A stretch of DNA of 64,000 bases, from sequence record MH243438.1; one strand, given 5' to 3'. Made by a program: the position numbers and the translations under genes. Numbering within the stretch: position 1 is the first letter of the stretch; each line of letters begins with the position of its first letter. Under the pieces are notes generated by a model, which saw only the letters and a list, made by a program, of their open reading frames with translations, was not told the DNA's origin and ran no database searches. This document shows positions 13,121 through 16,702 of this stretch, piece after piece. This DNA is from Escherichia phage vB_EcoM_NBG1.

Positions 13121-14934
13121 TGGTGTTTAACCCTATGCATGATTTCTTTATTTTTACCGAGATTAAATCCGCGTTCGTTCGGATTTCCCAAATAGCCGCA
13201 TGTTCTTCTTATTGTGTTCATCTTTTTAGGATCAGTTTCTCCACAGATAGAACAAACAAATCCGTTTTCAGTAGGAGTCATTTCATGAGTACTTCCGCAT
13301 GTAAAACATTTATCTACTGGCATATTAACACCAAAATAATCTAAATGTTGTGCAGCATAATCCCACACGGCCTCAAGACCTTTTAAGTTATTTTTCATAT
13401 CAGGAAGTTCAACATAAGAAATGTGACCACCTGTCGCAATGAAATGATATGGCGCTTCACGAGAAATCTTTTCAAACGGAGTAATATTTTCTTCTACTGA
13501 AACGTGGAAACTGTTAGTGTACCAGCCTTTATCGGTAACATATTTTACACTTCCATATTTTTCTGTATCAAGTTTACAGAAGCGGTAACAAAGGTTTTCA
13601 GCAGGAGTCGAATATAAACTAAAAGCAAATCCAGTTCTTTCAGTCCATTGCTTAAGATGAGCATTCATTTTAGTTAAAATTTCTTGTCCAATATCACGAC
13701 CAACAAGAATATTCAATTCGTGAATACCAATGTATCCTAAAGACACTGAACTTCTACCGTTTTTAAATAACTCAATTATGTCGTCATCAGGTTTAAGACG
13801 AACCCCGAATGCACCTTCTTGGTAAAGAATAGGAGCAACAGTCGCTTTAACTCCTTTTAAGGAACTAATTCTACACATCAAAGCTTCAAAACACAGGTCC
13901 ATTCGTTCGTTAAATAGCTCAACAAATTTCTGTTCATTGAACTGTGTTCCAATATAAGAATCTAACGCAATACGAGGAAGATTCAGTGTTACAACACCAA
14001 GATTATTACGTCCATCAAGAATTTCATTACCAGTCGAATCTTTCCATACGCTCAAGAAACTACGGCAACCCATCGGAGAAACAGGAACTGAAGAACCGGT
14101 AATAGCTTTATTATTCTTAACCGAAATAATGTCAGGATACATTCTTTTGCTTGCACATTCTAACGCAAGTTGTTTAATATCATAGTTTGGATCATCTTTA
14201 TAAAGATTAACACCTTCTTCAACAAACATAACAAGCTTAGGGAAAATAGGAGTTATCCCATCACGACCAAGACCTTTAATACGATTTTTCAGAATTGCTT
14301 TCTGAATCATTCGTTCAGTCCAGTCAGTTCCCGTACCAAATGTAATTGTTACAAAAGGCGTTTGCCCGTTTGAACTAAAAAGAGTATTTACTTCATATTC
14401 ATAAGCTTGGAATGCATCGTATACATCTTTTTCTGTTTTAGATTGAGCATAATTCAACGCATCAGCGATTTGCCATTTTTCTGCATCCTCAATATGTTTT
14501 GCATAGGTGCGTTTAACATAAGGAGAAAGTACTTTATCTACATTAGCAAAAGTCGTTCCGCCGTATTGATGGGAAGCAACTTGTGCAGTAATTTGTGCCA
14601 TAACTGCAGTAGCAACACCAATCGATTTAGGCGTTTCAATTTGAGCATTGCCTAATTTAAATCCGTTCTCAAGCATCCCCTTTAAATCGACTAAACAGCA
14701 ATTAGTAAATGGAAGAGCAGGGGAATAATCAATATCGTGGAAATGGATAATTCCGCTTTCGTGTGCTTTCATAATAAAAGACGGGACCATATTTTTGGCA
14801 ATGTGTTTAGACACAATACCAGCCATAAGGTCCCGTTGAGTTGGAAAAACACGAGAATCTTTATTAGCATTCTCGTTTAAAAGGTCTTTATTAGTTTTAT
14901 GAATCAGTCCTTCAATTTCTTTTTCAATTTTCAT
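13117..14934 (-). CDS. nrdD: Anaerobic ribonucleoside-triphosphate reductase NrdD
   Basis: 605 aa, C-terminal glycyl-radical motif RTCGYLG and Zn-ribbon cysteines; uninterrupted. Confidence 0.95.
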   Translation of the reverse strand: MKIEKEIEGLIHKTNKDLLNENANKDSRVFPTQRDLMAGIVSKHIAKNMVPSFIMKAHESGIIHFHDIDYSPALPFTNCCLVDLKGMLENGFKLGNAQIETPKSIGVATAVMAQITAQVASHQYGGTTFANVDKVLSPYVKRTYAKHIEDAEKWQIADALNYAQSKTEKDVYDAFQAYEYEVNTLFSSNGQTPFVTITFGTGTDWTERMIQKAILKNRIKGLGRDGITPIFPKLVMFVEEGVNLYKDDPNYDIKQLALECASKRMYPDIISVKNNKAITGSSVPVSPMGCRSFLSVWKDSTGNEILDGRNNLGVVTLNLPRIALDSYIGTQFNEQKFVELFNERMDLCFEALMCRISSLKGVKATVAPILYQEGAFGVRLKPDDDIIELFKNGRSSVSLGYIGIHELNILVGRDIGQEILTKMNAHLKQWTERTGFAFSLYSTPAENLCYRFCKLDTEKYGSVKYVTDKGWYTNSFHVSVEENITPFEKISREAPYHFIATGGHISYVELPDMKNNLKGLEAVWDYAAQHLDYFGVNMPVDKCFTCGSTHEMTPTENGFVCSICGETDPKKMNTIRRTCGYLGNPNERGFNLGKNKEIMHRVKHQ

Positions 14935-15404
14935 TTTAAACTCTTTCTAAGCTGCTTTTTGAATGAAGCTATTAATTGTGTTTTAGTATCAGATTCATTA
15001 TATTCAAATCCTCTTTGAAGCATCTCAGCCATCATTTCCTCTTTACCTAGTCTTGAGAACTCTTTAGTTTTGTCTGGAACAAAATTAGGATGGATATTAT
15101 TATCAGAATAATCTTGTTTCAAATAAGCAAGAAGAGCTTCAAGCCATTTGAGGTAGTCGACATCACGACCTTTAAGACCAGAACGGTTGAACTTATGCTT
15201 CATTTGGCCTTCTGCTGCGTTGCACAGATTACAGAGTAACCCACGAACTCTACCTGCTTTTGGCCCGTTTAATTCGTGGTCGTGGTCAAGATGGTTACCT
15301 TGAACATCAGGGTCTAATTCACGGTGGCAAATAGGACACTTACCGTTCTGTGCATCATAAAATTTTTGTTTTTCTTCTTTGTATAATTTGCCAGATAATA
15401 ACAT
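14931..15404 (-). CDS. 49: Endonuclease VII (Holliday junction resolvase) gp49
   Basis: MLLSGKLYKEEKQKFYDAQNGKCPICHRELD... 157 aa, close match to T4 endo VII. Confidence 0.9.
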   Translation of the reverse strand: MLLSGKLYKEEKQKFYDAQNGKCPICHRELDPDVQGNHLDHDHELNGPKAGRVRGLLCNLCNAAEGQMKHKFNRSGLKGRDVDYLKWLEALLAYLKQDYSDNNIHPNFVPDKTKEFSRLGKEEMMAEMLQRGFEYNESDTKTQLIASFKKQLRKSLK

Positions 15405-15440
15405 AATAAACCCTTACCATATTAGATAAGGGTATTTATA
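15405..15440 (-). promoter_or_regulatory. Gene 49 leader: late promoter TATAAATA (15433-15440) overlapping a hairpin next to the start codon
   Basis: Minus strand reads TATAAATACCCTTATCTAATATGGTAAGGGTTTATTATG; inverted repeat ACCCTTA/TAAGGGT. Confidence 0.5.
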
Positions 15441-15442
15441 AT

Positions 15443-15622
15443 TTAATAAATGTTATAAAAGTCACGATGGAAACGTTTGTATTGACGAATCATTCTTTTA
15501 GTAGGACGTGTTACCGAAATGATTGAAGTCCTCATGTTCGGATTGTTTGGAGCACCAATTATAACAAATTTCCAAGATTTTTGGCCGTTTGTTCTTTCGC
15601 CAAAAAATAATGCAGTTTTCAT
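15443..15622 (-). CDS. small basic protein, paralog A (59 aa)
   Basis: Hand-translated MKTALFFGERTNGQKSWKFVIIGAPNNPNMRTSIISVTRPTKRMIRQYKRFHRDFYNIY; paralog of 16047-16244. Confidence 0.45.
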   Translation of the reverse strand: MKTALFFGERTNGQKSWKFVIIGAPNNPNMRTSIISVTRPTKRMIRQYKRFHRDFYNIY

Positions 15623-15631
15623 AATAAGCCC

Positions 15632-16045
15632 TTAACTTAAACGTCTTTCTAAATATTCAATGTATTCCGCTGCGGCTTGCATCAGATTACCTTCATAACC
15701 GTCATTATTTTCTTGACCGGCTAATTTAGCTAAAGCATAAGAAATACGTTCACCTTCGAATTCGCCAAGTCCACCATCACAAACTACTTGGTCAATTTCT
15801 TCGAGTTCATCTATTGAATGGGATTCCCAGAAGCACCAAAGAGAAGTATCACGGTCATAGATGCAAAGTTTCTCACCTGTGTTCAACATCACTTCGTTAA
15901 TGCCATGGTCGCCATAACCATCTTCGGTAGTAGTACCAATTACCTTGATGATTGTTCCTTTCTTTAATTCAGGAAACTTGACTTGTAGTTCTTCATCTTC
16001 TTTAACAATCTTGAACCATTTACCGCGAGTTTCAGAAATATTCAT
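15632..16045 (-). CDS. hypothetical protein (T4 pin/49.x region)
   Basis: Start reassigned to MNISETRGKWFK; hydrophobic N-terminal extension in track ORF judged spurious. Confidence 0.5.
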   Translation of the reverse strand: MNISETRGKWFKIVKEDEELQVKFPELKKGTIIKVIGTTTEDGYGDHGINEVMLNTGEKLCIYDRDTSLWCFWESHSIDELEEIDQVVCDGGLGEFEGERISYALAKLAGQENNDGYEGNLMQAAAEYIEYLERRLS

Positions 16046-16046
16046 A

Positions 16047-16244
16047 TCAATATTCTCTATAAAAGTTACGATGAGAACGTTTAGCTTTGCGAAGCTGACG
16101 TTTAGTAGGACGAACTGTAAATGGTTGTCCAGAGAAAAAATTAGGATCGGTTTTAATAAGCAAATACCAATCATGTTTGCCATTTTTTAATAAACGGTAC
16201 AATAATTTAACTTGCATAATAATCTCTTCCCATTTCCATATCAA
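16047..16244 (-). CDS. small basic protein, paralog B
   Basis: ...NGKHDWYLLIKTDPNFFSGQPFTVRPTKRQLRKAKRSHRNFYREY shares NG-K-W...VxRPTKR...HRxFY with paralog A. Confidence 0.45.
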   Translation of the reverse strand: MIWKWEEIIMQVKLLYRLLKNGKHDWYLLIKTDPNFFSGQPFTVRPTKRQLRKAKRSHRNFYREY

Positions 16245-16345
16245 TTAATTCATTTATTGAAGGTTCATCATAACACGTTTCTTCGTCGTTGTAAACTGTT
16301 TCGACGTCTGGCTCGACCGTCTCCCATCGAGCCGAATACCACGGT

Positions 16346-16702
16346 TTAACCGCGGAGCTTATTGAGCTCTTCATAATCAATCCAGGATTCTAACCCAGAT
16401 GGCAGGTCACATTCGATGTTCCACAGAAGCTCTTCAATGGCTTGTAGACGATTGAGTTCTTCAACGGTAATAGTAACCATTGGTTCAACCGGTTTTGCCT
16501 TTTTAACCATCATGTCATTCATCAGGACGTACAAGTCGTCACGAACAACGGTATCATTCCAACCCCATGATTTGGCTGCATACGCTAATGATGATGGGAG
16601 CACATTTAAAACTTCAATAATAGATGGAGATTCAGGACCAAGCTCAGATACACAAACTTCGTATACATCTTGGAAATCTTTAAGATTTAATGAATATGTC
16701 AT
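16346..16702 (-). CDS. hypothetical protein
   Basis: 118-aa acidic ORF; start codon inside 22-bp repeat. Confidence 0.5.
   Translation of the reverse strand: MTYSLNLKDFQDVYEVCVSELGPESPSIIEVLNVLPSSLAYAAKSWGWNDTVVRDDLYVLMNDMMVKKAKPVEPMVTITVEELNRLQAIEELLWNIECDLPSGLESWIDYEELNKLRG

Follow-up and report, generated by a model that had tools for sequence, protein, structure and literature searches.

The pin locus of the phage genome analysed here raises the question of what two small genes for highly basic proteins are doing on either side of pin: whether they are genuine and related genes, how they come to bracket it, and what their products might contribute to infection. The window, by which we mean the whole stretch of 64,000 nucleotides of Escherichia phage vB_EcoM_NBG1 (MH243438.1) that was analysed, is from a Mosigvirus (RB69-like T-even) genome and shares 95–97% DNA identity with Mosigvirus phages, with phiC120 as the closest DNA match of the region. 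The minus strand carries every gene of the locus (Table 1), in the transcription order nrdC, two small open reading frames (ORFs), a 49.1-like gene, copy 2, pin, copy 1, a hairpin, gene 49 and nrdD, where copies 1 and 2 denote the two small basic-protein genes. The 49.1-like gene carries a gp49.1 annotation in RB69 and ATK48. Packing is tight, with the stop codon of copy 2 lying 1 nt before the pin ATG and that of pin 9 nt before the copy 1 ATG, and the start of copy 2 overlaps the 49.1-like gene by 11 nt, an overlap of the same length as in Salmonella phage S16. The central gene had been placed at the position of T4 pin in the original prediction, and this is borne out by the match of its product to PF10465 at 5.8e-49 (166 bits, against a cut-off of 27 bits) and to phrog_2167 at 3.3e-51, by 52% identity to T4 PinA, and by synteny with T4, in which pin likewise lies between the 49.x genes and gene 49. 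These matches identify it as a member of the PinA (Inhibitor_I24) family, and inhibition of Lon is predicted.

Table 1. Positions of genes, repeats and putative regulatory sites at the pin locus of the window.
Feature	Position	Strand	Remarks
Gene 49 (endonuclease VII)	14931–15404	−	Conserved downstream neighbour; annotated as endonuclease VII in all related records
Putative late promoter and hairpin/terminator	15410–15440	−	Promoter TATAAATA (15433–15440) and hairpin/terminator (15410–15433), after the stop codon of copy 1 and before the ATG of gene 49
Copy 1	15443–15622	−	59 aa, DUF7279, RB69 ORF087c type; closes the putative early unit; the gene 49 hairpin follows directly
D1 repeat arm in copy 1	15454–15508	−	Codes for the predicted basic helix; crossover block ACTTTTATA at 15454–15462
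pin	15632–16045	−	137 aa, predicted PinA-type inhibitor of host Lon protease, between the two paralogues
Copy 2	16047–16217	−	56 aa, DUF7279, RB69 ORF089c type; divergent, Mosigvirus-specific paralogue
D1 repeat arm in copy 2	16058–16112	−	Block ACTTTTATA at 16058–16066
49.1-like gene	16207–16374	−	55 aa from its ATG; directly upstream of copy 2 and overlapping it; phrog_2382 at 1.3e-28
Early-promoter-like site	16267–16295	−	GTTTACA ... TG.TATGAT; predicted by consensus scan, 10/12 matches, extended -10

The relationship between the two small proteins is clear from several directions. Aligned over their full lengths they share 21 of 59 positions (36%; E = 4e-11, BLASTP, single comparison), with the identities concentrated in the C-terminal half (13/21) relative to the N-terminal half (8/35). 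Both match phrog_3272, a profile of 59 positions, copy 1 at 1.8e-30 (residues 1–59 of 59) and copy 2 at 5.8e-27 (residues 1–56 on profile positions 1–59), and both match Pfam PF23945 (DUF7279; 53 positions, gathering threshold 24.5 bits), with scores of 53.8 bits for copy 1 (residues 10–56 on positions 4–53) and 54.5 bits for copy 2 (residues 7–53 on positions 1–53); DUF7279 is the sole Pfam family matched by either. Likeness by chance or through an artefact of alignment is ruled out by the BLASTP E-value together with the phrog_3272 and PF23945 matches, so that the similarity persists after proper alignment. Because the common Pfam and PHROG membership is joined by the same predicted fold and by purifying selection on both genes (see below), we take the two ORFs to be true paralogues within one small family, DUF7279/phrog_3272. 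The proposal of diverged paralogues bracketing pin therefore stands, and the motif quoted in support of it, NG..W ... RPTKR..R..KR.HR.FY, is correct; the similarity reported at the DNA level is likewise real, and amounts to a 55-nt direct repeat with 76% identity.

The family itself is already catalogued, for example as RB69 ORF087c and ORF089c, and has no described function or structure. The window proteins are full-length members that do not differ from these in sequence terms, and proteins 100% identical to each of them have been deposited as 'hypothetical protein' in Mosigvirus genomes. DUF7279 is not mentioned in the literature that we searched, nor are the two-copy arrangement, the lineage split or the role in recombination described there; a literature match to the name 'ORF087c' concerns Aeromonas phage Aeh1 and is not relevant. 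Members of the family were found in T-even-type phages only. An exhaustive HMMER search over 1.84 billion cluster representatives returned a handful of true relatives, all of them T-even-type phage proteins of 54–61 aa, and word-indexed protein searches found near-identical phage proteins only. Ankyrin, PQQ-propeller and fibronectin-like repeat proteins also appeared among the HMMER matches, and were rejected because what they share is no more than a generic hairpin motif ('NGxKxWxF' or 'ADPN') whose score is raised by the repeats. No true relative was found by sequence search of the PDB, and a Foldseek search of the PDB gave no match below E = 1; against the BFVD viral models the only neighbours were uncharacterised proteins of phages S16, CBH8 and Merlin. 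None of the sequence or structure searches found a characterised nucleic-acid-binding relative.

Of the two ORFs as originally delimited, the 59-aa ORF (15443–15622, minus strand) is unchanged, and the 65-aa ORF (16047–16244, minus strand) is retained with a corrected start. In copy 1 the ATG is preceded, at a distance of 6 nt, by the ribosome-binding site AAGGG. For copy 2 a comparable signal, GGAAGAG, lies 6–12 nt upstream of the ATG at 16217, the alignment with copy 1 begins at the methionine of this codon, which corresponds to Met1 of copy 1, and the equivalent ATG is the one used by the annotated homologues of phiC120, G53, a20 and LF82-5. For these reasons copy 2 most likely starts at ATG 16217 and encodes 56 aa, rather than starting at TTG 16244 and encoding 65 aa.

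Both genes also bear the mark of selection. Nei–Gojobori distances between orthologues from a dozen Mosigvirus records give dN/dS values of 0.04–0.22 for copy 1, at dS up to 0.76, and of 0.09–0.25 for divergent pairs of copy 2. Values so far below 1 in both copies argue that both are translated, rule out a pseudogene reading of either ORF, and identify both as genes under purifying selection; the doubt raised at the outset, that one copy might go untranslated, thus finds no support. Conservation of the family spans four genera. Two frameshifts in homopolymer runs interrupt this pattern. In the RB69 reference, copy 2 has one additional A in an A6 run (A7) near its 5′ end, at about 690–700 of the RB69 stretch compared, as a consequence of which ORF089c is annotated at only 38 aa, and in the metagenomic IMG/VR contig L008 copy 1 has one additional T in a T6 run (T7), also near the 5′ end, at about 2510–2520. 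These could be either true inactivations or sequencing errors.

The two copies belong to different lineages. Copy 1 is 53–62% identical to the single DUF7279 gene of Tequatrovirus and Dhakavirus; in Tequatrovirus G50 this gene has pin before it and gene 49 after it, and in Dhakavirus JS98 it immediately precedes gene 49. Copy 2 is only 34–45% identical to copy 1 or to the Tequatrovirus and Dhakavirus genes and sits on a long branch. By these identities copy 1 is the counterpart of the single Tequatrovirus/Dhakavirus gene and copy 2 a divergent paralogue specific to Mosigvirus. Copy 2 and the S16 protein both have a short β2–β3 loop, but orthology between them is not supported, as their identity is 24%, against 39% between the S16 protein and copy 1. 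At 80% identity or above, copy 2 is found in about 145 phage records and copy 1 in about 54.

Mosigvirus genomes present the locus in three arrangements. In type c, represented by the window, phiC120, RB69, G53 and ATK48, the order is 49.1, copy 2, pin, copy 1, 49; type b phages (LF82-5, RPN187, NicPhage and F27) have 49.1, copy 2, pin, 49, and so carry pin and lack copy 1; in type a phages (a20, phiE142, PHB12, Shf125875, ST0 and others) a single hybrid gene lies between 49.1 and 49, and pin is absent. The type a gene, as seen in a20 and phiE142, reads as copy 2 as far as ...HRNFY and then continues with NVY*, the tail of copy 1, and the DNA downstream of it matches the flank of copy 1. An explanation is offered by the direct repeat retained in the 3′ halves of the two genes (repeat family D1), whose arms are spaced 604 nt apart and include the exact blocks CGTCCTACTAAA and ACTTTTATA. 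The hybrid junction of a20 and phiE142 maps within the common ACTTTTATA block, and the type a locus is 603–604 nt shorter, equal to the D1 spacing. The same junction, in frame, is present in 28 records representing about 24 distinct phages. The paralogues thus act as recombination substrates: these features are explained by a single in-register crossover between them in a type c genome, within the ACTTTTATA block, which deletes 604 nt comprising the tail of copy 2, pin and the body of copy 1, and leaves one in-frame hybrid gene. Type a is read as the deletion, because an insertion would need a donor that already held both repeats; we infer loss of pin with regeneration of an intact hybrid ORF, the direction being given by parsimony. 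Type b differs from type c in another way, in that the 3′ third of pin is only 82–85% identical between the two and contains a 12-nt indel (window 15632–15800 compared with L006 1100–1256), whereas the 5′ two-thirds are 98–99% identical; this divergence implies a mosaic recombination breakpoint inside pin.

T4 has no intact DUF7279 gene, and the last 15 residues of its PinA (161 aa), MIQQYKRLHQMFYNT, are a DUF7279 tail with two Arg-to-Gln changes. Compared with G50, T4 has a 137-nt deletion that has joined pin, in the same reading frame, to the final 15 codons of the small gene (T4 NC_000866, 6898–7383, minus strand; compared with L002 2380–2740), and the C-terminus of T4 PinA is thus a DUF7279 relic. 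We had also considered that a crossover within pin might have yielded T4, with no copy, and the window, with two, as its reciprocal products; for T4 this model is ruled out because T4 is a 137-nt deletion derivative of the G50 arrangement. Yersinia phage ZN18 (L014 2440–2840) carries a T4-type fused pin, behind which lie a repeated 37 nt from the 3′ end of pin and, after these, a full DUF7279 gene; this tandem arrangement implies unequal recombination between T4-type and G50-type genomes. The locus is thus a hot spot of small rearrangements. Given the deletion in T4, the loss of copy 1 in type b phages and the frameshifts in RB69 and L008, the role of DUF7279 is dispensable in many hosts; the gene is dispensable in some backgrounds, yet under purifying selection where it is intact.

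The signals around the genes are consistent with expression early in infection. About 50 nt upstream of copy 2 is an early-promoter-like site from which all three genes would be transcribed, and its equivalent in phage SA79RD is annotated as a T4 early-type promoter. At the other end, the late promoter beyond copy 1 is annotated in SA79RD and the terminator in G53 and ATK48; the hairpin has a predicted RNA folding energy of −13.4 kcal/mol (z = −2.8) and was also found by a terminator scan. With ribosome-binding sites, tight packing, the early-promoter-like site upstream, and the late promoter and hairpin following copy 1, copy 2, pin and copy 1 seem to form a single early unit. The Shine–Dalgarno sequence of gene 49 (AAGGG) sits within the 3′ arm of the hairpin (window 15404–15445, minus strand), and by analogy this looks like the early/late translational switch that Barth and co-workers are said to have described for T4 gene 49 in 1988. 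The MKT... start of the small proteins had suggested capsid-targeted internal proteins similar to T4 IPI–III, and this reading was rejected, since the genes belong to an early-type unit that precedes the late promoter, the L/I-x-E cleavage motif is absent, and residues 2–9 form strand 1 of the predicted fold. We also note that the initiation regions of gene 49, copy 1 and copy 2 (15402–15421, 15620–15639 and 16215–16234) are 80–85% alike over 20 nt, constituting a repeat family D2, (T)AAGGGnTTATTATG, which may provide further short repeats usable for rearrangement.

Structure prediction with AlphaFold2, which had been proposed as a check, gives both copies the same topology of three antiparallel strands followed by a C-terminal helix (β-β-β-α), with mean pLDDT of 86 (copy 1) and 80 (copy 2). 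The Arg/Lys-rich character noted from the start is confirmed, with pI values of 11.4 (copy 1) and 10.8 (copy 2) and a net charge of about +10 each, and 7–9 Arg and Lys residues fall within the last 22. On a helical wheel the conserved basic residues (R39, K42, R43, R46, K49, R50 and R53 in copy 1) all lie within a 120-degree arc, and the hydrophobic residues occupy the opposite face, which in the models would pack against the sheet. The positions invariant throughout the family are G13, W17, T41, R46, K49, R50, R53 and F55. Each protein would thus be a module of about 7 kDa, in which a three-stranded antiparallel sheet supports an amphipathic C-terminal helix with an unbroken solvent-facing stripe of conserved Arg/Lys. 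The proteins are basic rather than acidic and have a different predicted fold from T4 PinA (Inhibitor_I24, PF10465). DNA-binding domains built from a three-stranded sheet and a helix, such as the integrase arm-binding N-domain and AP2/ERF, offer another comparison: there the DNA-contacting basic and aromatic residues are expected on the sheet, whereas the invariant basic residues of DUF7279 are on the C-terminal helix and the sheet keeps only G13 and W17 invariant. Arginine-rich-motif RNA-binding peptides (e.g. lambda N and HIV Rev/Tat) resemble DUF7279 in their Arg/Lys-dense helix, but are disordered until bound, whereas the models of DUF7279 have the helix packed against a folded sheet; we know of no sequence relationship between them.

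What these proteins do can be argued from such models and from the distribution of the genes. Composition and the predicted basic helix face together make nucleic-acid binding plausible, as had been suggested, and we infer that binding of nucleic acid or another polyanion through this face is the best candidate for their function. The account that we prefer, and hold tentatively, joins four elements: paralogues kept by selection, recombination between the repeats that they contain, an Arg/Lys stripe that early in infection would bind a polyanion, RNA or DNA being the likeliest, and a dispensable host-takeover or accessory role that would be independent of PinA. The basic face of the helix might just as well bind to an acidic protein, and on a somewhat less likely reading the proteins are instead protein-binding inhibitors of a host factor, serving anti-defence or host takeover as PinA does. 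Against this, the uniform positive charge of their conserved surface is commoner among polyanion binders, no family in PADLOC or NCBIfam was matched at E up to 1, and the Acr matches are generic sub-structure matches. That one or both ORFs are non-functional leftovers of duplication or recombination, with a similarity devoid of functional meaning, might be suggested by their very short length and by the frequency of losses and frameshifts at the locus; it is nevertheless very improbable, being already largely refuted by dN/dS of 0.04–0.25 at dS up to 0.76 across both copies, and sitting poorly with intact start codons and ribosome-binding sites in both, with conservation over four genera, and with a hybrid gene kept in frame in 28 records.

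The position of the genes invites a connection with PinA or Lon, in which the small proteins would be partners, modulators, or Lon-sensitive clients shielded by PinA. The genes lie very close together, translational coupling between them is probable, the charges are complementary (PinA has a net charge of −15 against +10 for the small proteins), and T4 PinA carries a fused DUF7279 tail. Against this, some two dozen Mosigviruses have retained a hybrid DUF7279 gene and have no pin, S16 has its DUF7279 gene with no adjacent pin, the T4 tail has lost two arginines, and the PinA of T4, a phage with no intact DUF7279 gene, is active on Lon (PMC8835725). Because the distributions of DUF7279 and pin are uncoupled in this way, we rank a partnership with PinA or Lon below independent action and regard it as unlikely. 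Returning to polyanion binding, we speculate that DUF7279 may constitute an unrecognised class of arginine-stripe nucleic-acid binders of about 7 kDa that act early on host or phage RNA or DNA, with Mosigviruses keeping two sub-functionalised versions and the T4 PinA tail aiding engagement of Lon, which itself binds DNA and polyanions; in this extended form the proposal is a long shot.

The genes having already been deposited as hypothetical proteins within a catalogued DUF, their identification as such adds little. The additional results, namely the lineage split, the hybrid gene formed where the repeats mediated loss of pin, and the tail that T4 PinA has kept from DUF7279, are solid and mainly of interest to specialists in T-even phages. 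The locus is a clean natural example of short in-register repeats within paralogues driving the loss of an anti-host gene, pin, while an intact hybrid ORF is regenerated. The T4 PinA of 161 aa (UniProt P07068) is the protein used in Lon-inhibition biochemistry (PMC8835725), and it is a chimera carrying a relic of a neighbouring gene, which is relevant for mapping the determinants of Lon binding. Absence from T4 also explains how a conserved, selectively maintained basic protein of 7 kDa went unnoticed through 60 years of T4 genetics; RB69 and other isolates offer the means of studying it. Lastly, upstream of the pair, a 118-aa ORF (window 16346–16702, minus strand) matches phrog_3402 ('antitoxin from a toxin-antitoxin system') in its C-terminal half at 3e-32 and has a weak Pfam match to the T7 gp5.9 RecBCD inhibitor (E = 0.048), and may be another anti-host gene of the same early block.
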